A DNA stretch of 64,000 nucleotides from Candidatus Lindowbacteria bacterium RIFCSPLOWO2_12_FULL_62_27 (GCA_001784175.1 MFPR01000004.1:186001-250000); one strand, 5' to 3'. Shown: positions 31,343 through 46,851, counted from the first letter of the stretch. Numbers and translations are program-made. The notes: generated by a model from the letters alone, not told the origin.

Positions 31343-31733
31343 GGAGCTGACGGTCTGGCAGAAGGCGCATCGGGTGGTGCTCGGGATTTATCGCGCGACG
31401 GCCGGGTTTCCGAAACATGAAATCTACGGTCTGACGTCCCAATTCCGAAGGTCGGCCGTGTCCATCCCGGCCAATATCGCCGAAGGATTCAAAAAACGGG
31501 GCAAGCCGGACAAGGCGCGATTCATGAACACGGCCCAGGGATCCCTGGAGGAGACCCGCTACTATCTGATCCTTTCACGGGACCTGGGCTACATGAACTC
31601 GTCCGCATTGTTGGACGACGTGGACGAGGTCGGCCGGCTCCTCTCAGCCTACACCGACGCCATCCTGTCCTCTATTTGATTTTCCGGTTTTCTGTGTTTC
31701 TTCTGTCTCCTGTATTCTGTCTTCTGTCTTCTC
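31252..31733 (+). mobile_element. Four-helix-bundle element bounded by 7-nt-periodic inverted repeats
   Basis: The left arm (31252-31295) and right arm (~31697-31733) are reverse complements enclosing one gene. Confidence 0.75.
31320..31679 (+). CDS. Four helix bundle protein (23S rRNA IVP / Avd-like)
   Basis: FEELTVWQKAH, FPKHEIYGLTSQFRRSAVSIPANIAEG, AQGSLEE. Confidence 0.93.
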   Translation: MEKAKTFEELTVWQKAHRVVLGIYRATAGFPKHEIYGLTSQFRRSAVSIPANIAEGFKKRGKPDKARFMNTAQGSLEETRYYLILSRDLGYMNSSALLDDVDEVGRLLSAYTDAILSSI

Positions 31734-31785: not shown

Positions 31786-32046
31786 ATGAGAAAGAAACCG
31801 GAGCGGATCGAGACCATTCGGCGGCGGCATCGGGGCAGAAAGCTGTGGCTGCTCATCGCGGTGGATACACTGGACCCGGAAACGGGGCTGGGACTGACCG
31901 GGCGGCTTTTGGCCAAAGACCCCGACCCCCATGCGCTGACCCCGGTGGCCCTGAAAACCAAACACCGGCATCTGGCGGTCGAGTGTTCCGAGGACATGCC
32001 CAAAGACACCGTCTGCATCTTCCTTCATGTCAGTCCAGCGGCTTGA
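31786..32046 (+). CDS. Small hypothetical protein coupled to the aspartic protease
   Basis: Leaderless start after TTGATC-17-TATAAA; overlaps the next gene. Confidence 0.6.
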   Translation: MRKKPERIETIRRRHRGRKLWLLIAVDTLDPETGLGLTGRLLAKDPDPHALTPVALKTKHRHLAVECSEDMPKDTVCIFLHVSPAA

Positions 32047-32425
32047 TCCAAAGCCGGACGTCATTGTCGTCAAGGCGACCGTGTACGGTGCGCGGGAGCG
32101 GGTCGAAACCCGCCTGATCCTTGACACCGGGGCCGCCACCACGTTGATCGATCCCGACATCCTGCTGGTGGCGGGGTATGATCCCGCAAAGGCTGTTCGT
32201 CGACAGGCCATGACCACGGCCAGCGGCCATGCCTATGCGCCTCTACTCGCGGTGCGTCGTCTTGTGGTCCTCGGGCATGCCGTCGGGACCATTGACGTGG
32301 TCGCCCATTCCCTGCCTCCGAACGTCCCCGTCCGGGGACTTTTGGGCATGAATTTCCTTCGGCATTTCAACCTCCACCTCGAATTCCCGGCGCGCCGGCT
32401 GCGGATGGAAGGGGGGAGAAGCTGA
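32027..32425 (+). CDS. Retropepsin-like (clan AA) aspartic protease
   Basis: LILDTGA and GLLGMNFL. Confidence 0.88.
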   Translation: MSVQRLDPKPDVIVVKATVYGARERVETRLILDTGAATTLIDPDILLVAGYDPAKAVRRQAMTTASGHAYAPLLAVRRLVVLGHAVGTIDVVAHSLPPNVPVRGLLGMNFLRHFNLHLEFPARRLRMEGGRS

Positions 32426-32494
32426 GGCTTGGGAAGAAGACAGAAGACAGAATACAGGAGACAGAAGAAAATCGACCCACAAAAGGAGAAAAGC

Positions 32495-32695
32495 ATGGAA
32501 AAGGCGAAAACATTTGAGGAGTTGACGGTCTGGCAGAAGGCGCATCGGGTGGTGCTCGGGATTTATCGCGCGACGGCCGGGTTTCCGAAACATGAAATCT
32601 ACGGCCTGACGTCCCAATTCCGAAGGTCGGCCGTGTCCATCCCGGCCAACATCGCCGAAGGATTCAAAAAGCGAGGCAAGCCGGATCATGAATGA
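32495..32695 (+). pseudogene. Truncated four helix bundle gene
   Basis: Near-identical to the 31320 copy up to GKPD, then stops. Confidence 0.88.
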
Positions 32696-32920: not shown

Positions 32921-33019
32921 TTACTGCTGTTCTGTCTTTTTCGCCAAATACAGCGCAACTACACCGTAGAGCAGACCAAAAATCGAAAATACCAAAAGCG
33001 CGGTTTCTCGTGCGTCCAT
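32921..33019 (-). CDS. 32-aa single-TM peptide
   Basis: Manual translation MDARETALLVFSIFGLLYGVVALYLAKKTEQQ. Confidence 0.55.
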   Translation of the reverse strand: MDARETALLVFSIFGLLYGVVALYLAKKTEQQ

Positions 33020-33033
33020 GTGTGAATCATCCC

Positions 33034-33216
33034 CTAACTTTTCTTTTTTGTCAACGCGACGGCCATCATAAGAAGCGCCACGCCCGTCAGCCACCCGATG
33101 AACTGAACGGGCCGGAGACTTTCGCGCGTTATCCAGTCCGCAAAACTGCCGATGATCGCCGCAAGGCCAAAACTGCGGACGTGGATTTTTATTTCCTCGA
33201 TGCGTTCCGGCGTCAT
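33034..33216 (-). CDS. 60-aa two-TM membrane protein
   Basis: MTPERIEEIK...GLAAIIGSF...WLTGVALLMMAVALTKKKS. Confidence 0.55.
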   Translation of the reverse strand: MTPERIEEIKIHVRSFGLAAIIGSFADWITRESLRPVQFIGWLTGVALLMMAVALTKKKS

Positions 33217-33399
33217 ATCAGCGCCGCCGCCGCGGCCGGAATGTCCGATTGGAACGATGCCGTGTCCATGCTCTGCATTATCGGCATCAGCGTGATTCCT
33301 CGTGAGGGCCGACGCCATCCCGGCCTCTATTTGATTTTCCGGTTTTCTATGTTTCTTCTGTCTCCTGTATTCTGTCTCCTGTCTTCTTCCCAAGCCCCC

Positions 33400-33702
33400 A
33401 AAAAAATATTTTGAAAAAATACTTGACTTGCACGCTTTTTTTGGTACCTTTGCACAATTACCCCTTCGTGTTCACGCACCTTTCGAGCCGAAGGGATAAG
33501 GCCTTACCCCGCTTGGCGGGGGGGGCGAAAAACGGCTAACATACCTGCCCATAACTGTTATGGCAGGTTTCAGAGCGGGCGCCTCAAGCGTTCCGGTCTG
33601 ATAGGCTTTAGTGAATATAGAGCAATACCCAAGAATGCTCCATTGTTTGACAGGCAACGAGGATTCGCAACAAGGAGCAGAACTTCAAAGGGGGGTTACA
33701 TC
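33400..33702 (+). promoter_or_regulatory. Promoter and long structured 5' leader of the surface-protein gene
   Basis: A-rich UP tract, TTGACT-16-(TG)TACCTT, then ~245 nt with at least 4 hairpins. Confidence 0.55.
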
Positions 33703-35397
33703 TTGAAGCACGGATTAATCTTTTTTGCGGCGCTGGTCGCGGTGGCGCTGGTTGTCAGTCCCGCAGCTTGGGCGGATACGAAGCAAGTAGACAGCCTCAG
33801 TAACACGACCACAGATGCAGGCGCTGATATTGCTGTTGGTGCTAATGGCGATATCTACGTGAGCGCCAAAGTTAGCGCGCAGCAGTTACAAGTCCAAAAG
33901 GGCACCAATGGGGGGACGTTTACAGATTTTTTACCCGCCACTGTTGTTGATACCAACTCGACGGCGGCCAGTGTTTCTACGCAGAGAACTGCCATTGCTC
34001 TTTATGGTCCTACCGACTCACCGATCGTGGCAATCGATTCGGTTATAGCGGGGCCAGGAGGGGGCACCGACACAAGTCGCGGGATCGCCATCTATGTGAA
34101 TGACACGGGTACCTCAACCATGCGGCGGCTTACGACAGTAGATTTGCGTGGTGCTTCCCTCGAAACACAGACTCAGAGGATAACAGCATTTGACTTGCTG
34201 GCTAATGACAGTTATGTCATCCTTTGTGTCAATTATGGATCGCCAAGCAGCGCTTCTGGCTCCGTTAGGCAGGCGGACACGCTTGCGTTGTTTATCTGGC
34301 GTGTAGCTGGGAACGGAGCTGCGTTGGCGTCTCTCGAGTATACACGGTACGTGCTTGATACTGACCCCGGTTTGGGCGCCGATTTGCAGATCGCAGAAGG
34401 ACCTGCCGGGGGTCTGAAAGTTGCGACGGATACGGCGTTCAGGTTTTACGTTATGCTCAATGTGACCGAAGACACCGAGGCCAATGCTGGTGAGGGTGTT
34501 ACTATTGAAGACAGAGACACTGGTATATCTGTATATCGTGTGACGTTGGCAGATTCTTCGTCAGGAGGCCCTGGTTTATGGTCTGCCAAGTTGCGATTCA
34601 GCTCGTCCAGATACGGAGTTATTTCGGCTGGTGGCGGTGACACATTTGTTGACGCGGCCATGGCGCTGGATCAGGAAGACGCGGGTGACACGATTGATCG
34701 TGTGACCATTATTGTGTCGCCCCATACGCAGCAAAAGGGGGCAGACACGCTGTTCATCCTCGTGATTGATGATGACTCGGCATCAATCCCTCCTGCCAAT
34801 TCAAACGCTGGGGATAGTGCGGCTAATGGATCGCCATTCCAGTGGTCCGATACGTTCTCACAGCTTGATACAGGCCTTGCAAACGTGGCACAGACTGTTG
34901 CGGCGAGACCGGCGTCTCTGGCATTCAACAGATCAGGCAACGCGCTGACTCTGTACTACATTTCGAACGCCGGTAATCTCTACAAGGCGACGGCATCCCT
35001 TGACGCGACCTCGCGGGGGTACGACACTTCATTTGCAGCGTCGATCTCGTGGAGCGTGGATACCCTCAACCAAAATCTCGGATACGCGCACAACGATCCC
35101 GTTATGGACATTGCTGCTAATCTTCCGAACACTCGAAGTTATCTAGAACTGTCGCAGACCGTGGTGAATAACGTGCTTTATGTGGTCGGCCACGACAGGA
35201 CGAGCGGAAGGATTTGGTATGTGACCTCCAGCGCCGCCGCGGAGTCAAAGAAGAAAGAGAGCGCGGTGTGTTTGATGGACCGTTTGTTAGGGAAGACAGG
35301 ATTGCGGGCGGCGTTTCCAGCGCTCAAGACGTTCCGTGACACCCTCCTCGGGACGGATTTGGGCCGGAAGGCTGTCAGTCTGTATTACGGGTTCTAA
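33703..35397 (+). CDS. Secreted surface protein with a CFI-box-CTERM-like C-terminus
   Basis: TTG start after a G-rich SD; signal peptide ending AWA; S/T/A/G/D-rich body; tail CLMDR..LKTFRD.LL....GRKAV.LYY. Confidence 0.75.
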   Translation: MKHGLIFFAALVAVALVVSPAAWADTKQVDSLSNTTTDAGADIAVGANGDIYVSAKVSAQQLQVQKGTNGGTFTDFLPATVVDTNSTAASVSTQRTAIALYGPTDSPIVAIDSVIAGPGGGTDTSRGIAIYVNDTGTSTMRRLTTVDLRGASLETQTQRITAFDLLANDSYVILCVNYGSPSSASGSVRQADTLALFIWRVAGNGAALASLEYTRYVLDTDPGLGADLQIAEGPAGGLKVATDTAFRFYVMLNVTEDTEANAGEGVTIEDRDTGISVYRVTLADSSSGGPGLWSAKLRFSSSRYGVISAGGGDTFVDAAMALDQEDAGDTIDRVTIIVSPHTQQKGADTLFILVIDDDSASIPPANSNAGDSAANGSPFQWSDTFSQLDTGLANVAQTVAARPASLAFNRSGNALTLYYISNAGNLYKATASLDATSRGYDTSFAASISWSVDTLNQNLGYAHNDPVMDIAANLPNTRSYLELSQTVVNNVLYVVGHDRTSGRIWYVTSSAAAESKKKESAVCLMDRLLGKTGLRAAFPALKTFRDTLLGTDLGRKAVSLYYGF

Positions 35398-35448
35398 GTC
35401 AGTCAACCAAGTATCATCGGCGCTTCTAAACCTTTAAGAAGCCCTTTC

Positions 35449-35490
35449 AACCCTGTTGTGGCGAACCAACGCCGCAACAGGGTTTTTTAT
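35449..35490 (+). terminator. Intrinsic terminator (repeated at ~36128, ~40681, ~45119; variant at ~41506)
   Basis: AACCCTGTTGTGGCG-AACCAA-CGCCGCAACAGGGTT followed by a T run. Confidence 0.88.
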
Positions 35491-35521
35491 TTGGTAACTA
35501 CTCGGGAGGAACGAACCACGA

Positions 35522-35583
35522 ATGAACACGAATGGACACGAATTGTTGTTGAAGGAGGAAGTGTACGAGGTCGTGGGATGTTG
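35522..35583 (+). pseudogene. 5' fragment of a GxxExxY protein gene
   Basis: MNTNGHELLLKEEVYEVVGC overlapping CACGAAT repeats; cut at the TCATGGTGTCATT motif. Confidence 0.6.
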
Positions 35584-36171
35584 TCATGGTGTCATTCTTC
35601 TACTTTGCTACTTTCGAGCGCAGTGTGCTTGATGGACCGGCTGTTCGGGAAGACAGGATTGCGGGCGGTGCTTGCAGGCGCTCAAGACGTTCCGTGACAC
35701 CCTCCTCGGAACGGATTTGGGGCGGAAGGCCGTCGGTCTGTATTACCCAGGGGTTTTTATTTTCGGGTCTTCCGGTTTTCCTGTGGGTAAAAGAGAGGCA
35801 TTTTATCGGGAGACGCGCCCCCTCTCCCGAACCCTCTACCCCACATTCCCCCTTCTCGAATGTCGTCAACGTCATGGATCTGGGATGAACGATGTGAGTG
35901 GTTTCATGGTGTCATTCTTCTACTTTGCTACTTTCGGGCGCGGTGTGTTTGATGGACCGTTTGTTCGGGAAGACAGGATTGCGGGCGGTGCTTGCAGGCG
36001 CTCAAGACGTTCCGTGACACCCTCCTCGGGACGGATTTGGGTCGGAAGGCTGTCAGTCTGTATTACGGGTTCTAAGTCAGTCAACCAAGTATCATCGGCG
36101 CTTCTAAACCTTTCAGAAGCCCTTTCAACCCTGTTGTGGCGAACCAACGCCGCAACAGGGTTTTTTATTTT

Positions 36172-36200
36172 TTGACAGACCGTATTTTTCTGACTATACT
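36172..36200 (+). promoter_or_regulatory. Sigma70 promoter of hicAB
   Basis: TTGACA-17-TATACT immediately after the repeat's terminator. Confidence 0.8.
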
Positions 36201-36238
36201 GATGGGGTGAGGAGGACGTGTTTTTCTAGAATAACCAC

Positions 36239-36490
36239 ATGAGCAAATATGAGAAACTTCTGTTGCGGATATTGAGTGGAACGTCGGATGCAAATATCCG
36301 TTTCGCGGCCCTGTGCCATCTTCTGAAGCGATTTGGCTTTGATGAACGAACAGAGGGGGGCCACCATGTTTTCAGAAAGGCGGGCGTAGAAGAGAAAATC
36401 AATTTGCAAAGAGATGGCAGCAAAGCAAAGCCCTATCAAGTTCGGCAGGTACGCGCCGTCATTTTGAAATACAGAATAGGAGACGAGTAG
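36239..36490 (+). CDS. hicA: HicA family toxin
   Basis: GF.ER..GGHHVF...INLQ..G.KAKPYQVRQV. Confidence 0.88.
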   Translation: MSKYEKLLLRILSGTSDANIRFAALCHLLKRFGFDERTEGGHHVFRKAGVEEKINLQRDGSKAKPYQVRQVRAVILKYRIGDE

Positions 36491-36492
36491 AT

Positions 36493-36705
36493 ATGGAACG
36501 CTATGAGATCATTATTTTTTGGAGCGACGAAGATCGTGCATTTGTCGCGGATGTCCCGGAGCTTCCCGGATGCATGGCGCACGGCAGCACGTATGAAGAT
36601 GCCTTGAGAAACGCGCGCAAGGCAATCAAACTGTGGCTAAAAACGGCCAGGGAATTCAATGATCCCATCCCTGTACCGAAGGGCCGGCGCCTCGTTCTTG
36701 CGTAG
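36493..36705 (+). CDS. hicB: HicB family antitoxin
   Basis: WSDED.AFVA.VPELPGCMAHG.TYE.AL. Confidence 0.9.
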   Translation: MERYEIIIFWSDEDRAFVADVPELPGCMAHGSTYEDALRNARKAIKLWLKTAREFNDPIPVPKGRRLVLA

Positions 36706-36789
36706 CCGGCCCCGAGTCCCGGTCGACGGCTGTTCGGCAAGGCGAGGAGATCGATGATCGGGGTCGGGCGTACGTTTATTCGTTAATGC

Positions 36790-36929
36790 TTATCGGGTTG
36801 AGACACCACATCCGTCTTTACCCGAAATGGATAGCCACAAAAGGCACAAAAGTCACAGAAAACATTAAAAATTTTGTGCCTTCTGTGCTTTTTGTGGCTA
36901 AAATGCGGTGCAGGTGTGTCAACCCGATA
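36790..36929. repeat. Nested palindromes (outer TATCGGGTTGA/TCAACCCGATA; inner CACAAAA/TTTTGTG periodic)
   Basis: Inverted repeats read directly from the sequence. Confidence 0.75.
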
Positions 36930-37200
36930 TGCATTTATTCGTTTTCTGTTGGTCCAACCATGCCTGTAAGACTTTGAGGGGTTGTCATGGTGTCATTCTT
37001 CTACTTTGCTACTTTCGAGCGCAGTGTGCTTGATGGACCGGCTGTTCGGGAAGACAGGATTGCGGGCGGTGCTTGCAGGCGCTCAAGACGTTCCGTGACA
37101 CCCTCCTCGGAACGGATTTGGGGCGGAAGGCCGTCGGTCTGTATTACCCAGGGGTTTTTATTTTCTTGACATCTCCCTGTGGCCGTCGTACATTTTCTAC

Positions 37201-37434
37201 ATGAAACTTCTGACAGGCAGGATTACGGTCGATTCAAAGACGGTTGGCGGGAAACCGTTTTTCAGAGGCACGCGTATTCCGGTTTATGTTGTGCTGGAGA
37301 TGCTTGCCAACCGGGAAAGGTCAGAAGATATTTTCAGAGCATATCCCAATCTGACGGAAGACGACCTTCGAGACGCATTGATTTATGCCCGTAATCTTGC
37401 CGAGGTTCCCGCCGCCCCCCCTGCCGCCGCTTGA
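37201..37434 (+). CDS. DUF433 antitoxin-like protein
   Basis: RIT.D....GGKP..RGTRIPV...YPNLT. Confidence 0.9.
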   Translation: MKLLTGRITVDSKTVGGKPFFRGTRIPVYVVLEMLANRERSEDIFRAYPNLTEDDLRDALIYARNLAEVPAAPPAAA

Positions 37435-37805
37435 AAATCCTGATCGACAACAACCTCCCTTTCTGGTGGGCAGCGAAGCTGAGGAAGGACGGTCTCGAAG
37501 CGTCACATGTCATTGACTGTGGATTGGCCGATCGACCGGATGACGATGTCCGTCAGGCCTTCAAATCCGAACCGATTCTTCTGATTTCTCGCGATTCCGA
37601 TTTCTGGAATGACTGTCCGGCCGGTTGGTCATTGATCTGGGTCTGTATCCATAACCCCCGCCTGGCCGATCTTCAATCCCGGATATACGACACCATCCGT
37701 CAAGCCATCCGCAACGCCAAGCCCGGCGTACGATGTCTGGTCACGGACGACGGCATCATCCGATTCGGGGAAGGCGCTGTTTCCGGCGCTCAAGACGTTC
37801 CGTGA
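37431..37805 (+). CDS. DUF5615 / PIN-like toxin
   Basis: MKILIDNNLP, HV..GL, LISRDSDF; last codons supplied by a repeat copy. Confidence 0.85.
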   Translation: MKILIDNNLPFWWAAKLRKDGLEASHVIDCGLADRPDDDVRQAFKSEPILLISRDSDFWNDCPAGWSLIWVCIHNPRLADLQSRIYDTIRQAIRNAKPGVRCLVTDDGIIRFGEGAVSGAQDVP

Positions 37806-38055
37806 CACTCGCTCCTCGGAACGGATTTGGGGCGGAAGGCCGGGGGAAAACATTGGCCACAAACGAACACGAACGATCACGAACAGACACGAAAAAACAT
37901 TCTTCCCATGTAAAAATGTTCGAGTTCGTTCGTGTTCCATGTTCGTTTCCGTTCGTGGAATATGTTGAATGGTTCTCCTCCCCCTTCTACCGACCCCTTA
38001 CCGGGCAACCGGATTTTTTATTGACAGTCCCTTGGACGTGGGATAGAATTTCAGT

Positions 38056-38238
38056 GTGAGATTGACGGAGAAGCAGCATTCAAATGCGGCAAAGATTATG
38101 ATCAACATAGGAACGATTTGGTTTGCCACCGGAGTTATCGGCGGCGCTTTTAAAACGCCTTTTTCACCAACAGAATTTTGGTCTGGTATCGTCGTATCCC
38201 TGCTCTGTTTTCTCGGAGCGATCCTGATGGAGAGGTGA
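38056..38238 (+). CDS. 60-aa two-TM membrane protein
   Basis: Leaderless after TTGACA-17-TAGAAT; two hydrophobic segments. Confidence 0.65.
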   Translation: MRLTEKQHSNAAKIMINIGTIWFATGVIGGAFKTPFSPTEFWSGIVVSLLCFLGAILMER

Positions 38239-38245
38239 TCGAATC

Positions 38246-38347
38246 ATGACCCCATTAATATTGATGTCTTTAACGACCGCCATCGTGGTCACCCTATTTG
38301 TCTCTTGGGTGCTCATTTCCGACCATAGGCCTAAAAAACCCCAGTGA
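38246..38347 (+). CDS. 33-aa single-TM peptide
   Basis: MTPLILMSLTTAIVVTLFVSWVLISDHRPKKPQ; SD GAGGTGA contains the upstream stop. Confidence 0.6.
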   Translation: MTPLILMSLTTAIVVTLFVSWVLISDHRPKKPQ

Positions 38348-38702
38348 CAACGGACAACGAGCGGCGCCGTCGCGGAGTCGAAGAAGAAAGACAGCGTGGT
38401 GTGTTTGATGGACCGGCTGTTCGGGAAGACGAGTTTGCGGGCGGCGTTTCCGGTTAATCGGTATCATGTGTCATGGTCATGGTCATGTGTCATGTGTCAT
38501 GGTGTCATTCTTCTACTTTGCTACTTTCGGGCGCAGTGTGCTTGATGGACTGGCTGTTCGGAGAGACGACTTTTGCGGGCGATGTTTCCGGCGCTCAAGA
38601 CGTTCCGTGACACTCGCTCCTCGGGACGGATTTGGGTCGGAAGGCTGTCAGTCTGTATTACTGGTTCCAATGCTGAAGATTCGGCCGCGGCGGACCCGCC
38701 CT

Positions 38703-38876
38703 TCACGCGCGCGCGGCGGCATTCCGGGAGATGATCTTCCTCTTTGGGCGCCGGACACGGTACCGACTTTCGAGTCCTTTCAAATACTCGACAATCTTGA
38801 CGGGGTCATGCCCATATTCCCGTGAAATGACGCTTCGAATGCGCCGGATGGCGCCGATGACCGGATCTGTTTTCAT
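38703..38876 (-). CDS. Antitoxin-like partner of the PIN protein
   Basis: MKTDPVI..IR.IR..IS..YGHDP; ATGA overlap; homologous to 40726-40899. Confidence 0.7.
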   Translation of the reverse strand: MKTDPVIGAIRRIRSVISREYGHDPVKIVEYLKGLESRYRVRRPKRKIISRNAAARA

Positions 38877-39358
38877 GGCATCTCCTCCTTTCCTGACATC
38901 AATTCCAGCGGCGTAACCAACTCCGAGACATCCAATCCCAGAATCGTATTCACGGCTCGAATGTGCGCAAACTTGCGGGCATTGGCCAGATGCTGACAAT
39001 TCAACGTAAGCAAGTAATCGCAGCGATGGAATGACGCAACCGCCAAATGAAGCGCATCCCCTGCGGGATCCACGGGCATCACGCGCCGCGCGATGTAAAC
39101 TCGGGTAATGTCGGCAATTTCGTCCGTCAGTTCCAATATCTCGACGGAATTCATAAGACGCATTGCCCGGGTACGGTTCGGCCAGTTCCCGCGTTCGAGT
39201 TCGGCCCATACGGCCACACTGGTCACAAGTTCGAACTGGTGACGATTCTCATGCCACCATTTTCTTGTCCAGAGCCGCCGCGCCATCATTTCCGGCTGCG
39301 GCCGGGTATCAAAGTAAAAGCTGGGTATGGACGTTTCAATGTACACGCGCCTTTTCAC
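38873..39358 (-). CDS. PIN domain (VapC-like) toxin
   Basis: VYIETSIPS, DALHLA.AS...CDYLLT.NC.HLANA. Confidence 0.88.
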   Translation of the reverse strand: MKRRVYIETSIPSFYFDTRPQPEMMARRLWTRKWWHENRHQFELVTSVAVWAELERGNWPNRTRAMRLMNSVEILELTDEIADITRVYIARRVMPVDPAGDALHLAVASFHRCDYLLTLNCQHLANARKFAHIRAVNTILGLDVSELVTPLELMSGKEEMP

Positions 39359-39472
39359 ATCGACAGCCTACCACAGCATACCGCCAAAAACAAAAACCGC
39401 CCACAGCGATTCCGCAAATAAAGAATCCGAAGTGATCCAAGTCCTACAAAGATAGGCCAAAACAGGAAAAGC

Positions 39473-39667
39473 GAGGTTGTCCCCCGTTTAGTTGAAAATG
39501 AAGAGGCGGTTCTCCCCTCCCGGATGTTAATCTGGGAGTGCAGATTTTCAAAAACAGAAAGGAGAACCGCCATGAAGAGAAAGTACCAGAGGATTCAGAC
39601 GAAAAGCAACGAGGACATGATGTTGCCTGCGGGGGTCAAGCTGGACGACATCATCGACGGAGTTTGG
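39473..39667 (+). mobile_element. Possible IS left end with truncated transposase start (IS256-like?)
   Basis: GAGGTTGTCC end; SD sequestered in a GGCGGTTCTCC/GGAGAACCGCC hairpin; ORF MKRKYQ... cut after ~32 codons by the repeat. Confidence 0.35.
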
Positions 39668-39823
39668 TCATGGTGTCATTCTTCTACTTTGCTACTTTCG
39701 GGGGCGGTGTGTTTGATGGACCGGCTGTTCGGGAAGACAGGTTTGCGGGCGGCGTTTCCGGCGTTCAAGACGTTCCGTGACACTCGCTCCTTGGGACGGA
39801 TTTGGAGCGGAAGCTGAAGCCAA

Positions 39824-40019
39824 ATGAAGGTACGGGATATAATCAAGAAAATTGGGGCCGATGGCTGGTACTTGGTCGAGACGAAAGGCAGCCATCAACA
39901 GTACAAGCACCCGTCCAAACCGGGGCGGGTCACCGTTGCCGGACATCCCGGCGGATGATCTGGCGCCTGGAACGCTCAACAGCATTTTAAAGCAGGCGGC
40001 CCTCAAGGAGGCAAAATAG
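39824..40019 (+). pseudogene. hicA: HicA toxin with a one-base frameshift
   Basis: DGW.....KGSH.QYKHP.KPGRVTVAGHPG, then an extra G; DDLAPGTLNSILKQA continues in another frame. Confidence 0.85.
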
Positions 40020-40020
40020 G

Positions 40021-40236
40021 ATGTACCGATTCTTGATTGTCATCGAAAAAGCAAACGGAAACTACTCGGCGTACTCTCCCGATCTGGCCAGCTGCATCGC
40101 GACAGGTCGCACGCGCGAAGAGGCCGAGCGCAATATGCACGGGGCGATTGAAATGCATATCAAGGGACTCCGGGAGGACAATCTCCCGATCCCCGAATCC
40201 TCCTCCTTCGCCGAATACGTGGCCGTCGGTTTTTGA
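40021..40236 (+). CDS. hicB: HicB family antitoxin
   Basis: YSAYSPDL..C.ATG.T.EEA...M..AI..H..GL. Confidence 0.88.
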   Translation: MYRFLIVIEKANGNYSAYSPDLASCIATGRTREEAERNMHGAIEMHIKGLREDNLPIPESSSFAEYVAVGF

Positions 40237-40479
40237 CCGAGAACGTGTGAATAAATCCTTTATCCACGAAGTGGCACGAAGGAGCATCGGACGACAGAAG
40301 GCGGAAACCATTGGCCACGAACGGCACGAACGATCACGAACAGACACGAAAGAACAAATTTCCCGGTTCAGTGACGGAAACGGAACTCGATACCTGCAGG
40401 ACGTCCTGGGTGTAACCATCGCCAGCATGGCGCTGGTATCAGGATTTATCTTGACGAAGAGGCTGAACGGCGATAAACT

Positions 40480-40593
40480 ATGAGCGAAATGAACAATGTG
40501 AATTTCGGGTTTCTGCTTTTGTATATCGTCACCATCGGGTGGACGCTGTTTGCGTGGTGGGCTTCAGGCAAGTATAAGCCATCAGAAAAGTAG
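40480..40593 (+). CDS. 37-aa single-TM peptide (upstream partner survives only as a 3' remnant)
   Basis: MSEMNNVNFGFLLLYIVTIGWTLFAWWASGKYKPSEK; ATGA overlap with a hydrophobic ORF tail. Confidence 0.6.
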   Translation: MSEMNNVNFGFLLLYIVTIGWTLFAWWASGKYKPSEK

Positions 40594-40725
40594 GCGTCCA
40601 CCTGCGGGACCACCCTCCATCGGCCGGAAGGCTGACAAATTCGGATCATCGGCGCTTCTAAACCTTTAAGAAGCCCTATCAACCCTGTTGTGGCGAACCA
40701 ACGCCGCAACAGGGTTTTTTTTTCA

Positions 40726-40899
40726 TTATTTTGTCCCGCCGACCGGTCCGGCCGGCGAAGGCTCTTTGTAAATCCGTTCAGGATGCCTTTGTTCAAGTTG
40801 GCGCAGATGCTCGATCATTTTAAGCGGGTCGTGCCCAAACTGCGCAGAAATTTTTCTCCGGGCTTCTCTCACTTTCTCGACCCCTGGATCATCTTTCAT
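40726..40899 (-). CDS. Antitoxin-like partner of the PIN protein
   Basis: Manual translation MKDDPGVEKVREARRKISAQFGHDPLKMIEHL... Confidence 0.7.
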   Translation of the reverse strand: MKDDPGVEKVREARRKISAQFGHDPLKMIEHLRQLEQRHPERIYKEPSPAGPVGGTK

Positions 40900-41380
40900 C
40901 GGATTCCTCCTCGCTTAAAAGCTCCAATGGCGTCACCAGATTCGGGACGAAAAGGCCCAACATGGCATTGACGATGCGAATATGCTCGAACTTGTTGGCA
41001 TTTGCCAGGTGGCGACAGTTCCACGTCACCAAATAATCACACCGATAATATGAAGCGAACGCCAGATGCAGAGCGTCGCCTACCGGATCGGCCGGCATCA
41101 CACGGTGACGGACATAGGCCGTGACGATCTCTGACAGACGCTCTGTTGCCGGCAACACGGAAACTTTTTCGATCAACCTCAGGCACTCATCCCGCGCCGG
41201 GTGATTCCCGCTTTGCAGTTCATCTATCACCGCCTCGCTTGTGACCAACTCATATTTTTCCCCAAGCCGATCCCACCACTGCACCGTCCAATCACGGCGC
41301 GAGACCATGTCCGACTCCGTACGGGTCTCAAAATAAAAGCTCGGGATCGTCGTCTCAACATATATTCGTTTCTTCATCAC
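40889..41380 (-). CDS. PIN domain toxin, paralog of 38873-39358
   Basis: IYVETTIPS, DALHLA, TWNCRHLANA. Confidence 0.88.
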   Translation of the reverse strand: MMKKRIYVETTIPSFYFETRTESDMVSRRDWTVQWWDRLGEKYELVTSEAVIDELQSGNHPARDECLRLIEKVSVLPATERLSEIVTAYVRHRVMPADPVGDALHLAFASYYRCDYLVTWNCRHLANANKFEHIRIVNAMLGLFVPNLVTPLELLSEEESDER

Positions 41381-41789
41381 ACACCCATTCTATCCCAATC
41401 CTCATTCCTTTTCCACTATCTTGGGTTGCAGTGTCAGGTATTGAGTTATTGCCGTATAAGGAATGCGGCGGTTCCGGCGCTTCTAAACCTTTCAGAAGCC
41501 CTTTCAACCCTGTCGGGGTTAACCAAACCCCCGGCAGGGGTTTTTATTTTGACGGAGAAGCTGAAGTCCATTAACTACGAATCGAACGGTAAACCGAAAG
41601 AGCGCGAAAAATTTCATAGAGAGTTTTTATGTGTTTCTCGAAATTTTGCGTCATTTCGTAGTTAAAGTTTCCTCGATTTTTGCAGCCGGGTTTTTTGACA
41701 TTTGAATCTGTCTTGAATACAATCTGATTGGTTTTGTGAGGCCGATAGGCTGGATGGCATGATGAACAGACAGATGATAGGGTTCCGCC

Positions 41790-42062
41790 ATGCCGGTGGT
41801 ATTCAGATACAAGGGATATCGATTTTTGTTCTATTCGAATGAAGGGGACCCGAGGGAACCTCTTCATATACATATTCAGAAAGGGAGCGCGGTCGCAAAG
41901 GTTTGGCTGATCCCCATACCCTGTGTGGCTGAGAGCTACGGCCTGACGGCGCATGAATTGAACGAGCTTCTGACGATTGCCGTTGAAAACAGAGAGAAAA
42001 TTGAGAGGTGCTGGCATGAGTACTTTGATGACCAATCCCATGGCAAAAAGCCTGCGGTTTGA
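41790..42062 (+). CDS. DUF4160 protein
   Basis: MP.....GYRF.FYSNE...EPLHIH...AKVW. Confidence 0.88.
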   Translation: MPVVFRYKGYRFLFYSNEGDPREPLHIHIQKGSAVAKVWLIPIPCVAESYGLTAHELNELLTIAVENREKIERCWHEYFDDQSHGKKPAV

Positions 42063-42288
42063 TGATGATACCCTGTGGGTCGACTTGGAGGATGGCCGAC
42101 GGCTGGGTGTGCCCCTCGCTTATTTCCCCCGCCTCCTAAGGGCATCGCCCGAACAAAGAAACGGGTTTGTGATCAGTGGCGGCGGGACGGGCCTTCATTG
42201 GGACGCAATTGATGAAGACATTTCCGTTCCCGCCTTGATGATGGGCATTGGGGATCGCACCACCCGTTCAACCCCGAAGAAATCGTAA
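42016..42288 (+). CDS. DUF2442 protein
   Basis: L.DGR.L.VPL..FPRL..A...G.GLHW..IDEDISV. Confidence 0.88.
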   Translation: MSTLMTNPMAKSLRFDDDTLWVDLEDGRRLGVPLAYFPRLLRASPEQRNGFVISGGGTGLHWDAIDEDISVPALMMGIGDRTTRSTPKKS

Positions 42289-42566
42289 CCCGGGAAGAGG
42301 AGTGTGTCCCTCCGATGCCTGCCAACTTCTCGATCTTCATATATAATCAGAAGCCCTTTCAACCTTGGTGTGGCGAACCAACGCCGTAAGGCGGAAACCG
42401 CATAACACGAATGGTCACGAATGTGTTCGAATGGACACGAAGGGAGAACCCACAAAGCGCTTTCTTCTACTTGACACCCCTACTGGAAACCCCTTAACTT
42501 CCGACCCCTTACGTTCACCGACGCTTTTTGTTTGACATTCCCAGAGGCCGCGGCTAAACTGTACAC

Positions 42567-42848
42567 ATGAAAATAGAGGAGCTGACCGAGGCGTTTCGAA
42601 AGGCCATGGTGGACACGTTCATCCCGGAAATTCGACAGCTCCGGGAGGAAATATGCGGGCTGCGGGGGGAAATGCAGGCGCAAAACGCCGCGCTGCGGGG
42701 GGAAATGCAGGCGCAAAACGCCGCGCTGCGGGAGGAAATGAAAGAAATCAAAGGCGCTTTGAATGTCATCCTTCACCGTCTGGATGTGGCCGATCGGGTG
42801 GCCAAGCTTGAAGGTCAGATGGAATATCTCCTCAAGAAGGCCAGTTGA
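42567..42848 (+). CDS. Small coiled-coil protein with an 11-aa tandem repeat
   Basis: LRGEMQAQNAA twice (33 bp); leaderless promoter TTGACA-17-TAAACT. Confidence 0.7.
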   Translation: MKIEELTEAFRKAMVDTFIPEIRQLREEICGLRGEMQAQNAALRGEMQAQNAALREEMKEIKGALNVILHRLDVADRVAKLEGQMEYLLKKAS

Positions 42849-42897
42849 GGCTCAGGTGTTTGAACGGTGGAATCCATGTGCGACCTATAACGATTGG

Positions 42898-43685
42898 GTA
42901 GAGTCGAGGTGAGGCGCGGTAACAGCGGGTAAGCTGTCCCGTTTCCTCACCCCGCTCATCGAACCGGACGTGCGGATTTGCCGCATCCGGCTCTCGGACT
43001 GATTTCACGCAGGGCATGCGAGACGTTCCTTCTTCAGGTTCATCAGACTGGTCATCCCCAGTTCGCCGTAAATCGCGTCACGGCCAAACCGGCGATATCC
43101 CTGTCCGGCGATCTTGTGTCTCTTGCGCAGAAATCGACGCACACTATCCTCAACGTAACGATCCGTACGTAGATATCCCTTCGAACAGCTCCCGTAACTG
43201 AAATAGTTCGCCCAGCCAGTCAGCAGTCGATTCAATCTCTGACACAGATTCGGCCACGGTGTCGGGTTGCCTCGATAGAGCAACCCCTTCAGACGCTCTC
43301 GAAGCCGTTTCTCCGCCTTCCGGCTCGGACACGCTCCCAAATATCGTGCGCCGTTCTTCGGCCAGATCATCGGACCGAACGTGTAACCCAGAAAGTTGAA
43401 ACTCTCCCGGCGTCCATCCCTCACACAGGTCTTGCTCTCGTTGAGCTTGAGGCCAAGCCGTTCCGTCACCCGCTTCGTCCACTCCAAGGCTTTCCGCCCT
43501 TCTTGCCGACACAAAATCACAAAGTCGTCGGCGTAGTTTACGATTCGGGCTTGAAACCGCTCCGCCGCTCCGCTCGTCCGAAAATACAACAGCAGTCTCC
43601 GCATGTAGATGTTCGCCAATAACGGCGAGAGAACTCCTCCCTGCGGCATCCCTCGCGTACTTCGTTTCCCGCCGGTAAGTCGGTG
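42898..43685 (-). mobile_element. 5'-truncated group II intron (RT4-7, X domain, DV, DVI)
   Basis: DV GAGAGCCGGATGCGGCAAATCCGCACGTCCGGTTC; DVI ending CTCGACTCTAC. Confidence 0.92.
43005..43685 (-). pseudogene. ltrA: Group II intron RT/maturase, N-terminal half missing
   Basis: GMPQGGVLSPLLANIYM, YADD, FNFLGY, GWANYF. Confidence 0.9.
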
Positions 43686-44029
43686 TTGCGACACTGTCAT
43701 TCTTCTACTTTGCTACTTTCGGGCGCAGTGTGCCTGATGGACTGGCTGTTCGGCAAGACGAGTTTGGGGGCGATGTTACCGGGTCTGACGACGTTCCGTT
43801 GTGCGGGAAGTCCCGTGCATGGAGCAGGCGCATCGGGCAGGTTCACGGGCACGTTTACGATCACGTTTCCAACTGATAGGATGAACCTCTTGCATGAGGT
43901 TGTGGGTTCGAATTTGAACGTGAACCTGCACGTGCCCGTGAACGTGCCCGAATTGGGCGCCCTCATGAATGGTGACGGGAGTGAGGAAGTCCTCTCCCCC
44001 CAAGCAAGGGGGATTAAGGAGGGTGTGAC

Positions 44030-44491
44030 ATGGCGGCGGTGAAGCCTCGCGTGTATTTGGACACAACGGTTCCGAGCGCCTATCTGGATGCGCGTTCGCC
44101 TGACCGTCAGCGTTTGACGGCGCATTTTTGGAATTTTCGTCTGCCTGAATTTGTGCCGATGATTTCAACGATTGTTCTTTCGGAGATTCGCGATACGCCG
44201 GATATTGACAAACGCGGAAAAATCGAGAAACTTGTAGAAGAATTCGACGTGGTAGAGTTTGACGTCCGGGCGGATGATCTGGCTCAGCGGTACGTCCAAA
44301 ACGGGATATTCCCGGACAAATACGAATCGGACGCGCGCCACGTGGCCGTGGCTGTCGTGAACGGCATTGCCTATTTTGCAAGCTGGAATTTCAGGCATCT
44401 GGTCAAAGTAAAAACGCGGCGTGAGATCAATTCGGTCAATGCCCTTCAGGGCTACGGCCCCATCGAGATCGTGGCGCCCCCTGAATTATAG
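44030..44491 (+). CDS. PIN domain toxin
   Basis: VYLDTTVPS, DARHVA, SWNFRHLV. Confidence 0.88.
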   Translation: MAAVKPRVYLDTTVPSAYLDARSPDRQRLTAHFWNFRLPEFVPMISTIVLSEIRDTPDIDKRGKIEKLVEEFDVVEFDVRADDLAQRYVQNGIFPDKYESDARHVAVAVVNGIAYFASWNFRHLVKVKTRREINSVNALQGYGPIEIVAPPEL

Positions 44492-44500
44492 GAGACGAAC

Positions 44501-44707
44501 ATGAAGAAGTTGAGCAACACTGAAACGCGGGAAGCATGGCGGGTGGTTCGAAGGGATTTTCCCGACGATGAAATGATGCAGGAAATTCATTTCGTCCGCA
44601 TCCTTCACCGGCGTCAGACCCGCCGCCTGTCCCAAAGAGAGCGTATCCGCTTTTACCAGCGAGCAAAGCAGGGCAGAGTGCAAAAACACTCCATAGCCGG
44701 CCTTTAA
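44501..44707 (+). CDS. Antitoxin-like partner
   Basis: 68 aa, follows the PIN gene with an AGGAG SD. Confidence 0.6.
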   Translation: MKKLSNTETREAWRVVRRDFPDDEMMQEIHFVRILHRRQTRRLSQRERIRFYQRAKQGRVQKHSIAGL

Positions 44708-44835
44708 AGGTCGGCCTGCCCCGTCAGACCGGCGGTTTTGGCAGGATTACGGGTAATAGTCCCTGCTGGTCCTGACCGTCGGACTCTGGTTGACAAGAGG
44801 CTTGAACGGGGATAAAACATAGGCAGGTGATACGC

Positions 44836-44937
44836 ATGGAAAATGGAGAATACGGATTTTTGTTGATGTATGCGGTCCTGATCGCGCTGTCGGTTTTTGG
44901 ACTTTACGTAGGCGCACACGCCCGACCGATCGACTGA
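44836..44937 (+). CDS. 33-aa single-TM peptide
   Basis: MENGEYGFLLMYAVLIALSVFGLYVGAHARPID; TTGACA upstream; SD AGGTGA. Confidence 0.6.
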   Translation: MENGEYGFLLMYAVLIALSVFGLYVGAHARPID

Positions 44938-45046
44938 CCTTGGGATGGTGGGCGGTCACGGAGGGTCCGGAAGCCGTTCCATGACACTCGGTCCTCGGGA
45001 CGGATTTGGGGCGGAAGGCTGTCGGTCTGTATTACGGGTTCTAACC

Positions 45047-45074
45047 GTAGGGGCGATGCATGCATCGCCCGTAC
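45047..45074. repeat. GTAG-type REP
   Basis: GTAGGGGCGATGCATGCATCGCCCGTAC, located just after the stop codon inside a repeat copy. Confidence 0.8.
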
Positions 45075-45191
45075 AAATTCGGATCATCGGCGCTTCTAAA
45101 CCTTTCAGAAGCCCTTTCAACCCTGTTGTGGCGAACCAACGCCGCGACAGGGTTTTTTATTTTCGAATGGAGGAAAAGGAGGCAAAATAGG

Positions 45192-45407
45192 ATGTACCGG
45201 TTTTTGATTGTCATCGAAAAAGCAAACGGCAACTGCTCGGCGTACTCCCCCGATCTGGCGGGTTGCGCAGCGACGGGTCGCACGCGCGAGGAGGCCGAGC
45301 GCAATATGCACGGGGCGATTGAAATGCATATCAAGGGACTCCGGGAGGACAATCTCCCGATCCCCGAATCCTCCTGCTTCGCCGAATACGTGGCCATCGG
45401 ATTTTGA
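45192..45407 (+). CDS. hicB: Orphan HicB, near-duplicate of 40021-40236
   Basis: Near-identical DNA; preceded only by AAGGAGGCAAAATAG, the last codons of hicA. Confidence 0.85.
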   Translation: MYRFLIVIEKANGNCSAYSPDLAGCAATGRTREEAERNMHGAIEMHIKGLREDNLPIPESSCFAEYVAIGF

Positions 45408-45569
45408 CCGATGGATCGTCGGCTCTTCGGCCTTCGGTAAGTTCCAGTTGTCATAAGCCAAGAAGAGCTTGTATGATATGGGCTGTAAGGTTGAGCGTGT
45501 CATGGGGTCGACGGGAACGGAGGTCGCTGGATTGCCGGATTGGCGCGGTAGACGTATGAACCAAACGAT

Positions 45570-46157
45570 ATGAAAAAGAGACGGATCGTCCACGTGATAG
45601 CCGGGGCTAATGGGTCCGGCAAGACAACGTTCGCCATGCGGTATCTGCCGCGGATGGCCGGTTGCAGGAATTTCGTCAATGCCGACCTCATCGCTTCCGG
45701 TCTTTCCCCCTTGAATGTCGACGCGGGGGCCATGCGGGCGGGAAAGCTTTTTCTGCAGAGGATCGAAGAGGAAATCCGAAGTAAAAGAGATTTTGCGTTT
45801 GAGACCACTTTGTCCGGACGCCGATTACAGCGTCTTTTCAATCGCTTGCGGAATAAAGGATATCGGATTCGTCTGTATTTTCTGTGGATATCCACGGTGG
45901 AATTGGCATTGAAGCGCGTCTCGGATCGTGTGCGGATGGGCGGGCACTCCGTTCCGGCGCGGGTCATCCGCAGACGTTATGGAAGAGGTATCCAGAACCT
46001 TTTCAAAATCCATGTCCATTTGGCCGACTACTGCGCCATTTTTGACAACTCCTCGACAGAACCAGTCCTGATATGTGAATATATAAAGGGGCGGGAGCGC
46101 ATCGTAAGATCCTCGTTGTTTGACGATATCCGGAAACGCGCGGAGGGAATATCATGA
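45570..46157 (+). CDS. Zeta-toxin-like P-loop ATPase
   Basis: AGANGSGKTT, NADLIA, ETTLSG, RV..GGH.VP, DNS. Confidence 0.88.
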   Translation: MKKRRIVHVIAGANGSGKTTFAMRYLPRMAGCRNFVNADLIASGLSPLNVDAGAMRAGKLFLQRIEEEIRSKRDFAFETTLSGRRLQRLFNRLRNKGYRIRLYFLWISTVELALKRVSDRVRMGGHSVPARVIRRRYGRGIQNLFKIHVHLADYCAIFDNSSTEPVLICEYIKGRERIVRSSLFDDIRKRAEGIS

Positions 46158-46351
46158 AGAACGTCGGCCGGCGGCCAACACCGATCGGCAAAAAAGCCGA
46201 ACGGGCACTTCGTGAGGCTGTGGCGGAGGTGGTTGAAGGACATCGCCGCCGAAATCTGCCGCTGGCGGTCATGCGGAACGGGAAGGCCGTATTCGTGCCG
46301 CCCGACAAACTCATTCTGAAGCCACGCCGACCACGCCGGTCATTCCGTTAG
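46154..46351 (+). CDS. Small partner of the zeta-like ATPase
   Basis: ATGA overlap; A...H...NLP..V.RNGK.V. Confidence 0.7.
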   Translation: MKNVGRRPTPIGKKAERALREAVAEVVEGHRRRNLPLAVMRNGKAVFVPPDKLILKPRRPRRSFR

Positions 46352-46540
46352 TTTTGTCAGTTTATAGGGCGTACGGTGTCCACTGACCGAATACTGTGAC
46401 CGGATTTTTTATTTTATGAACATGGCGCCATGCGTTGTTGAGCGACTGGCGATCGGGTGCGGCACGATGCACCTGTGCTTTCCCGTCGGGATTTTTCATT
46501 CATCTTGACTTCCTGGACTCGAACGGGATAATGGGACCGT

Positions 46541-46738
46541 GTGAATGAGGGAAGACGCCGAGAGGTGGGAAAGCTCTTTTTTGACATTGCCAAATATTTT
46601 GCGACGATCGTGGGAGGGACGTTCTTGGTCAAGCCTGAGGTGGTGACGCCGGCACTCGGCATCAAGACGGGGATATTGGTTTTGCTGGTTCTGCTCATCG
46701 GTTGGTTTATGTACCCGAAAGGAGGGAAGGAAAAATGA
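46541..46738 (+). CDS. 65-aa two-TM membrane protein (DUF6722-like)
   Basis: EVGKLFFDIAKY motif; two hydrophobic segments. Confidence 0.65.
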   Translation: MNEGRRREVGKLFFDIAKYFATIVGGTFLVKPEVVTPALGIKTGILVLLVLLIGWFMYPKGGKEK

Positions 46739-46851
46739 TGGAGACGATTGAACCAGGGAATGGTCTGTTGCTTTTCTATGGGATCATCTGTGTGGGTGGC
46801 GCGCTATTAGGCGCATGGGGAGCGTGGCAGGATTCAAGGAAAAAACCATGA
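46735..46851 (+). CDS. 38-aa single-TM peptide
   Basis: MMETIEPGNGLLLFYGIICVGGALLGAWGAWQDSRKKP; ATGA overlap. Confidence 0.6.
   Translation: MMETIEPGNGLLLFYGIICVGGALLGAWGAWQDSRKKP

Follow-up and report, generated by a model that had tools for sequence, protein, structure and literature searches.

Why should a pair of very small membrane-protein genes recur several times over in one low-G+C (guanine-plus-cytosine) stretch of an uncultured bacterium's genome, side by side with toxin–antitoxin (TA) genes? We address this question for a 64,000-nucleotide stretch of Candidatus Lindowbacteria bacterium RIFCSPLOWO2_12_FULL_62_27 (GCA_001784175.1 MFPR01000004.1:186001-250000), hereafter the window, which comprises positions 186001-250000 of contig C4 in a 4.39 Mb assembly of 44 contigs (genome G+C 64%). 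An initial annotation of this DNA had proposed that the pair is an undescribed membrane TA or defence module. We call the first gene, which encodes a two-helix protein, A, and the downstream gene, which encodes a one-helix peptide, B; G000 denotes the window's genome. Our analysis shows that A and B are both real genes selected as proteins, and that their association is more than chance, as seen in paralogous pairs on four other contigs, in the ratio of nonsynonymous to synonymous substitution rates (dN/dS) and in the pairing found elsewhere. The reading we favour, with a probability of roughly 0.4, is that A, a hairpin, would damage the membrane if the cognate peptide B did not restrain it.

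The window holds three A-B pairs and two further B genes, each of the latter preceded by the remains of an A gene (E, E-value; profile matches as indicated):

A1, 33034..33216 (stop included), minus strand: 60 residues, two helices, 'LTKK' subfamily; identified by open reading frame (ORF) and hydropathy, A-profile E 1.4e-13
B1, 32921..33019, minus strand: 32 residues, one helix, charged tail KKTEQQ; B-profile E 2.8e-6
A2, 38056..38238, plus strand: 60 residues, two helices, DUF6722-like subfamily; A-profile E 6.8e-20
B2, 38246..38347, plus strand: 33 residues, one helix, tail ISDHRPKKPQ
A3, 46541..46738, plus strand: 65 residues, two helices; sub-threshold DUF6722 match
B3, 46735..46851, plus strand: 38 residues, tail WQDSRKKP; overlaps the A3 stop
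A remnant before B4, 40382..40483, plus strand: 3' part of an LTKK-type A, comprising the second helix and the tail '...ILTKRLNGDKL' up to the stop; A-profile positions 36-63 of 64
B4, 40480..40593, plus strand: intact peptide behind the remnant; B-profile E 4.1e-8
A remnant before B5, 44760..44822, plus strand: 20 codons, 'SLLVLTVGLWLTRGLNGDKT' and stop, ending 'LTRGLNGDKT'; A-profile positions 49-63
B5, 44836..44937, plus strand: intact peptide behind the second remnant; B-profile E 2.5e-5

Kyte-Doolittle hydropathy (15-residue window) peaks at 2.1-2.7 and marks two hydrophobic stretches per A and a single one per B. These ORFs lie where the initial annotation had placed three pairs, a 3' remnant with B4, and B5; its description of B5 as a solo peptide was right as to the intact peptide at 44836-44937 but overlooked the 20-codon A remnant that precedes it. 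The end of the remnant before B4 resembles intact relatives, and for B4 itself the second ATG, at 40489 and 9 nucleotides past the -10 box of a promoter-like site listed below, is the likelier start. Coupling of the two genes agrees with what was proposed earlier: A3 and B3 share an ATGA overlap, A2 and B2 are 7 nucleotides apart with GGAGAGG ending at the A2 stop, and A1 and B1 are 14 nucleotides apart with TAGGGGA, likewise a purine-rich stretch at the stop. B3, B4 and B5 carry the peptide motif G[FL]LL[LMF]Y. The three intact A genes of the window do not find one another in pairwise searches.

The association of A with B extends well beyond the window. Further pairs in G000 lie on contigs C14, C7, C6 and C28, for a total of seven pairs plus the two B genes with remnants, so that every one of the seven intact A genes in this genome has a B. 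Outside G000, a scope that here and below combines other genomes with metagenomes (L-numbers denote loci from either), there were 43 A-profile hits, the metagenome loci including 21 from a pattern scan. These hits were distributed as follows:

35 of 43: full-length A with at least 110 nucleotides of downstream sequence, followed by B
1 of 43: 5'-truncated A that retains B (L027)
5 of 43: A hit with too little downstream sequence
2 of 43: defective A (L023, L039)

All 35 full-length genes with sufficient downstream sequence are followed by a one-helix B of 31-50 residues (28 distinct pairs), which starts from 36 nucleotides before to 7 nucleotides after the A stop; with the G000 pairs included, spacing ranges from a 36-nucleotide overlap to a gap of 14 nucleotides. 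By comparison, B-like frames occurred behind 1.2% of long ORFs of G000, in 6.6% of trials in which the downstream DNA was shuffled and at 14.6% of random places in the same module-rich loci. Selection on both partners can be gauged from the C14 pair, which is 72% (A) and 69% (B) identical to A1 and B1: at a dS of about 1.1, dN/dS comes to 0.225 in A and 0.18 in B. Conserved pairing elsewhere and purifying selection on both genes, on which the initial proposal had been made to depend, are thus both observed, and A and B share with type II TA systems the property of being adjacent small genes that are kept together.

Similarity between A proteins is distant but recognisable. A2 is 71% identical to a metagenome relative at L037, whose partner peptide is 57% identical to B2. 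A profile built from five G000 A proteins and run against 1.84 billion representative proteins retrieved 29 at E <= 0.001, nearly all 57-86 residues long, which have in common an 'M+LT.KQ.E' helix at the N-terminus, then a first helix in which small residues are abundant and, after a short loop, a second one. The earlier suggestion that A belongs with DUF6722 (PF20482) holds as a distant relationship: five of the 29 aligned relatives match that model at E <= 0.01 (best 3.8e-10), and DUF6722 proteins resemble A in having about 60 residues, two hydrophobic helices and an N-terminal motif of the 'LTKKQRENL' type. It does not hold as an assignment of the window copies, which fall below the curated cut-off of 27 bits. 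A3 matches over the full model length (positions 1-49 of 49) at E 0.0013 and 19.4 bits, A1 and A2 show no match at E up to 1, and a whole-genome search gave no DUF6722 match over the cut-off, which is about reached by three of the 33 members of a wider A alignment. Since few relatives and no window copy reach this cut-off, we regard A as a superfamily around DUF6722 to which the window copies do not belong by the Pfam criterion.

The family as a whole appears undescribed, as had been supposed. Pfam, NCBIfam, PHROGs and PADLOC returned nothing above cut-off for any window A or B (the PHROGs matches of the pair were all weak, E >= 3e-4, and to unrelated families), the libraries searched hold no model for B, and the Pfam model covers A only. 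The few named database entries among the relatives are all called 'hypothetical protein', and our literature search found neither a paper naming DUF6722 nor, among work on small membrane TA pairs, a description of the A-B pair. The ESM Atlas offered a lead only: the clusters with the best score (0.87) are unnamed, and one in which DUF6722 makes up 15% came eighth.

AlphaFold2 predicted A2 to be a helical hairpin (helices 5-31 and 38-59) with a predicted local distance difference test (pLDDT) score of 94.2, and a Foldseek search of this model against the PDB found no match at E <= 0.001 and generic helical hairpins only. A prediction of the A2-B2 complex with alignments as input gave a score of 0.02 and a mark of 0.32, which speaks neither for nor against binding. 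The B peptides carry a membrane-adjacent motif, (Q/S)-D-(R/W/Y/H)-(K/R), for example 'HQDRKEK', with 'SDHRPKK' in B2 and 'QDSRKKP' in B3. Their C-terminal end is more positive than their N-terminal end in 36 of 36 cases (mean +1.9 versus -0.7), and the N-terminus of A is basic (mean +2.1). Read by the positive-inside rule, these charges place both ends of A inside the cell, and the N-terminus of B outside with its tail inside.

Of three genomes belonging to the same family, two (G001 and G003) contain clear modules, as do two very distant genomes (G010 and G059), and in all of them A is followed by a B-like peptide. Presence is patchy, since 57 other families yielded two clear cases; searches at phylum level around G059 and G010 took in one and six genomes, respectively, and two pattern-based scans of genome contigs and one of metagenome contigs returned nothing. 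On several contigs from metagenomes the modules are multiplied:

L043: tandem array of five pairs
L050: tandem array of four A genes, three followed by B and the fourth cut by the contig end
L040 and L045: tandem arrays of three each
L042, L048 and L036: two A genes each; both L048 pairs are complete, and the second A of L042 and of L036 stands where the contig stops, with its B beyond view

Copies within one array are 20-40% identical. Across pairs, A and B identities co-vary (r = 0.70, a value reached in none of 2000 permutations), which suggests that A and B diverge as cognate pairs, a pattern that simple linkage could also produce. Neighbouring genes differ from locus to locus and include TA genes (PIN/CcdA, Gp49/HTH_37, DUF433/DUF5615 and HicAB) and other accessory genes (ORF6N, YhcG nuclease and AAA_16); in G000, most copies lie in TA islands. 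This accessory, patchy and multi-copy distribution in variable contexts is also one expected of type II TA systems. On the minus strand of arrays L043, L050, L040, L041 and L045 run antisense open frames of 159-376 codons. We rejected these as genes, since they are repetitive mirror readings ('FSLCFFVNS...' opposite 'KKQRE') with no Pfam match, and they could be mis-annotated as such.

Several modules had been credited with their own sigma-70 promoter, and promoter-like sites indeed stand before A2, A3, B1, B4 and B5:

Promoter of A2-B2, 38021..38049, plus strand: TTGACA-17-TAGAAT, 11/12 consensus positions; ends 6 nucleotides before the GTG start
Promoter of A3-B3, 46505..46532, plus strand: TTGACT-16-GATAAT, 10/12; ends 8 nucleotides before the GTG start
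Sigma-70-like promoter inside the A1 3' end, 33026..33054, minus strand: TTGACA-17-GATGAT, 10/12; -10 box ends 6 nucleotides before the B1 ATG
Promoter-like site in the remnant before B4, 40451..40479, plus strand: 9/12
Promoter-like site in the remnant before B5, plus strand: TTGACA at 44790-44795, 17-nucleotide spacer, TAAAAC at 44813-44818

Two arrangements can be distinguished. In the DUF6722-like type, a near-consensus TTGACA-17-TAnnnT ends 5-12 nucleotides before the A start in 20 of 28 modules outside G000 and within 45 nucleotides of it in 22 of 28, compared with 2.9% and 6.8% of random ATGs, respectively; A2, A3 and the C6 copy are arranged likewise. A promoter that abuts the A start in this way implies a leaderless or nearly leaderless mRNA. 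The same TTGACA-17-TAnnnT layout, 6 nucleotides before the ATG, stands before a DUF433 cassette (37166-37201) and before a coiled-coil ORF at 42567-42848 (42532-42567). Because these two other island cassettes (starting at 37201 and 42567) have it, the promoter-at-start layout is a habit of these genomes rather than specific to the module, and the promoter spacing suggests that leaderless mRNAs may be common in this organism.

In the LTKK type, which comprises A1, both remnants, the C14 and C7 copies and one copy each in G001 and G003 (three genomes), the promoter is internal. At all seven loci TTGACA/G and TAnnnT, separated by 16-17 nucleotides, fall within the last codons of A, with the -35 box formed by the Leu-Thr codons of the conserved 'LTKK' and the -10 box 6 nucleotides (four loci), 9 nucleotides (two) or 17 nucleotides (one) from the B ATG. 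The codons that make up the -35 box are rare ones (TTG, 9.5% of Leu codons; ACA, 9.3% of Thr codons), and since synonymous sites between copies are otherwise saturated, the internal promoter sequence is conserved as DNA. Nothing but this promoter-bearing 3' piece of A is left in either window remnant. Upstream of LTKK-type A genes, no conserved element and no promoter for A could be recognised. Weak antisense promoter-like sites (9/12) that point into the peptides were noticed 3' of B2 (38322-38350, minus strand) and of B4 (40571-40600, minus strand), and none at the other eight of ten modules checked.

Loss of the two genes is asymmetric. No intact A without B was found among 42 (35 outside G000 and seven inside), and an intact B without an intact A directly upstream occurs at least nine times:

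B4 and B5 in the window: A remnants upstream
L027: 5' half of A replaced by the island repeat
L039: A codon 41 turned into a stop (TCA in L038, TAA here)
G059, contig C258: A frameshifted, with fragments in two frames upstream
G010, contig C67: no trace of A; B-A-B order
L040 (two) and L043 (one): extra B genes behind complete pairs

At L023, B and half of A have been lost. In addition, a third one-helix ORF of 33 residues ('MEHAEIG...SIKSPHA') lies 9 nucleotides behind B on contig C14 (L001:4218-4316, minus strand) and possibly represents a B' in an A-B-B' arrangement, although the B profile does not detect it. The statement that the downstream gene survives loss of the first applies to B4 and B5 and to loci elsewhere, and the direction of decay, with A lost and B kept, is the one that a poison-antidote pair predicts. 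The polarity originally proposed, a toxin A and an antidote B, gains comparative support from this decay and from the B promoter inside LTKK-type A genes.

Taken together, these observations partly support the TA interpretation as a whole, and they allow a mechanism to be proposed. Each module would be a self-contained two-gene cassette. A would be a helical hairpin of about 60 residues with both ends in the cytoplasm, a basic N-terminal helix ('M+LT.KQRE') and membrane helices rich in small residues, which, if it assembled alone, could damage or permeabilise the membrane. B, a peptide of about 35 residues whose acidic N-terminus faces out of the cell and whose basic tail faces in, would be made from the same mRNA by translational coupling, pack against A within the membrane and keep it harmless; in the LTKK subfamily it would additionally be made from its own promoter inside A. 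Such a cassette may spread, duplicate and diversify among other TA cassettes. We only infer that A is toxic and that B neutralises it, as we do any part that the pair may play in addiction, in the stress response or in defence against phages. More tentative than the mechanism is the wider claim that the modules form a new poison-antidote class, in which both partners are integral membrane micro-proteins that act in the bilayer, are made from leaderless mRNAs without transcriptional autoregulation, and occur as diversifying arrays in uncultured groundwater and soil lineages; we consider this possible but somewhat doubtful.

Several observations weigh against the poison-antidote reading. The near-consensus promoters at the A start would give strong constitutive expression of the supposed toxin, and the usual type II autoregulation is impossible because neither A nor B has a DNA-binding part; the DNA-binding, autoregulating antitoxin typical of type II systems is accordingly not seen here, neither protein having a matching domain and the model of A being a bare hairpin. 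Near-consensus promoters without a DNA-binding partner, together with the arrays, would be just as much in keeping with a membrane complex that is abundant and non-toxic. Some pairs stand directly behind housekeeping operons or genes (atpGDC, an aminotransferase gene, asmA). The decay asymmetry is of modest statistical weight, since A is about twice as long as B and a target-size null gives about 0.07 for the six cases of broken or missing A, and its base is narrow in that the B profile was run over six genomes. PADLOC-DB 2.0 gave no match for 12 of 13 proteins and a chance-level match (E 0.027) for one relative. Finally, addiction modules are often carried on plasmids and phages, and a tblastn search of plasmid and phage collections found no match, a result obtained with two query proteins only that does not establish absence.

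The nearest known logic is that of SpoIISA/SpoIISB/SpoIISC. In the spoIISABC locus of Bacillus subtilis (PMC6562991), the membrane-damaging toxin comes first, a stronger second promoter inside the toxin ORF drives the small antitoxin, a second antitoxin has arisen by duplication, and there is no evidence of autoregulation. The internal B promoter and the A-B-B' arrangements are the counterparts here, and spoIISABC is also a precedent for a type II TA system without a DNA-binding autoregulating antitoxin. The proteins themselves differ: SpoIISA has 248 residues, three membrane helices and a cytoplasmic GAF domain bound by the soluble, disordered SpoIISB, whereas A has 60 residues and no globular domain, B is a membrane peptide, and there is no sequence relation to SpoIIS. 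As B is itself a membrane peptide, any neutralisation would take place within the membrane. Type I loci (Hok/Sok, Ldr/Rdl, Fst, TisB/IstR, TxpA/RatA and BsrG/SR4) are similar in encoding tiny hydrophobic peptides with charged tails, in multiple and often tandem copies (general features in part from PMC6562991). Their antitoxin is an antisense RNA, in contrast to the selected, translationally coupled protein partner of the A-B pair.

Among type V systems, GhoT of Escherichia coli is a two-helix membrane toxin of about 57 residues. Its antitoxin GhoS, encoded first, is a soluble RNase and works by cleaving the toxin mRNA. GhoT is thus like A in size and topology and GhoS unlike B, and no similarity of the pair to GhoT/GhoS emerged in any search made. 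Class II holins and pinholins, which are small two-helix membrane proteins with charged ends, also resemble A; the A-B pair, however, lacks a phage context and an endolysin. An origin of the pair as a holin/antiholin-like prophage lysis system is the least probable of the explanations we considered. Beyond the size and hairpin topology of class II holins, it could draw on a chance-level match of one relative to Phage_holin_3_3 (E 0.006) and on the C7 copy, which follows a glycine-rich, fibre-like ORF. Against this, no endolysin or spanin gene lies beside any module, the PHROGs matches are to unrelated families, and neither two pattern scans of 2.9 million viral contigs nor a search of 50,697 phage records with the queries used brought up a true relative.

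The main alternative, which we judge only somewhat less probable than the favoured reading, is that A and B are subunits of an abundant non-toxic membrane complex with an organising, scaffold or channel-modulating role, in which coupling sets the stoichiometry, extra B genes and the internal promoter reflect a need for more B or an independent activity of B, and arrays provide dosage or specialisation. The start-codon promoters (22 of 28) with no regulator encoded, the tandem multi-copy arrays, the pairs behind housekeeping operons and the strong purifying selection would all be expected of such a complex. Its presence would be harder to reconcile with the patchiness seen even in the window genome's own family, with positions that vary and in G000 fall mostly in TA islands, with array copies whose low identity and cognate divergence look more like specificity than dosage, and with the frequency of pseudogenised A beside intact B. 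This last pattern also counts against a reversal of roles, in which B would be a membrane peptide like type I toxins and A its membrane-embedded immunity protein, since a B equipped with a promoter persists intact without its cognate A (B4, B5, G059, G010, L039 and L027). The reversal takes its appeal from the size, topology and charged tail of B (C-terminus more positive in 36 of 36), which presumably liken it to Fst, Ldr and PepA1 with their one helix and charged tail, and from the multi-copy, tandem layout generally known from type I loci; but a consensus promoter probably drives B directly, and the antisense promoter-like sites, present at two of ten modules, are both weak. We consider it quite improbable. 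Highly improbable, too, is an intercellular toxin and immunity system in which one partner is released from the cell or inserted into neighbours, like a leaderless bacteriocin, while the other protects the producer and an orphan B is an orphan immunity gene: diversified cognate arrays and surplus partner copies do recall what is generally known of bacteriocin/immunity and polymorphic-toxin loci, yet no leader peptide, export or processing genes were found beside any module examined, and both partners have the charge pattern of membrane-retained proteins.

The genomic setting of the window copies agrees with the claim that the modules occupy the same slots as TA modules. G+C is 0.51-0.56 over about 32-48 kb of the window, compared with 0.58-0.66 on the flanks, and protein family matches show this stretch to be crowded with small cassettes, among which the A-B pairs sit and between which repeats stand. 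All of the following lie in the island at about 32-48 kb:

HicA/HicB, two copies, plus an orphan HicB
DUF433/DUF5615
Two PIN-model matches, perhaps three, and their small partners
DUF4160/DUF2442
A zeta-toxin-like kinase
A truncated group II intron reverse transcriptase

The island repeats (35233-35492, 35590-35764, 35910-36170, 36991-37165, 38364-38677, 39672-39840, 43695-43804 and 44971-45161) are copies of the last ~45 codons of a secreted-looking 584-residue ORF at 33643-35397 ('...CLMDRLLGKTGLRAAFPALKTFRDTLLGTDLGRKAVSLYYGF' and stop), which has no Pfam or NCBIfam match. A downstream element with a strong terminator hairpin at its end accompanies them at 35403-35492, 36081-36170, 40635-40724 and 45073-45161, in the third case with no clear copy of the coding part. 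Cassettes are placed between these 'scar' repeat copies, and the repeat also occurs in the same-family genome G001 (locus L027). We considered and rejected the possibility that these are integron gene cassettes: no integron integrase reached its cut-off genome-wide (the best TIGR02249 matches, on another contig, scored 111.6 and 84.7 bits versus a cut-off of 265), and the island repeat folds no better than shuffled sequence (z = 0.10). In four DNA sequencing runs, contigs break at the island repeats. A 987-nucleotide DNA contig from run X5 joins 38397 to 39706 via 33 shared bases and skips the PIN cassette, and this junction is either a natural variant that arose when the repeats recombined or an artefact of assembly.

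The interval 42924-43700 (minus strand) is a group II intron remnant. Its reverse transcriptase/maturase ORF is truncated, with RVT_1 matched from profile position 111 onward and GIIM also present, and the 3' domain of Rfam Intron_gpII lies at 42924-42995. The remnant is a multi-copy element, since the depth of the four DNA runs peaks there. A 259-nucleotide direct repeat, 98% identical between 31252-31510 and 32427-32685, duplicates the start of a four-helix-bundle gene of the 23S-rRNA-IVP type (full length at 31254-31679, truncated at 32429-32695). The orphan hicB at 45195-45407 is a 93% identical duplicate, without hicA, of the hicB that follows hicA at 39824-39958, the duplication spanning 40005-40240 and 45176-45411. 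A gene for a retropepsin-like aspartyl protease (PF13975/PF13650) lies about 50-500 nucleotides from an A-B pair, in varying orientation, at three loci: 32027-32425 in the window, 256314-256712 on contig C6 of G000 and L030:1034-1444. The window and L030 copies were confirmed by Pfam and the C6 copy was judged by eye.

That a conserved and widespread partner of a Pfam 'DUF' family went unnoticed can be attributed to size, since genes as small as B (31-42 codons) are missed by most annotation. Should the poison-antidote reading fail, the pair would still be among the commoner unexplained small membrane complexes in such genomes. If it is true, one micro-protein would neutralise another inside the membrane itself, an arrangement outside the current TA types, and these modules would add a compact family of membrane-active toxins from poorly known, uncultured bacteria.

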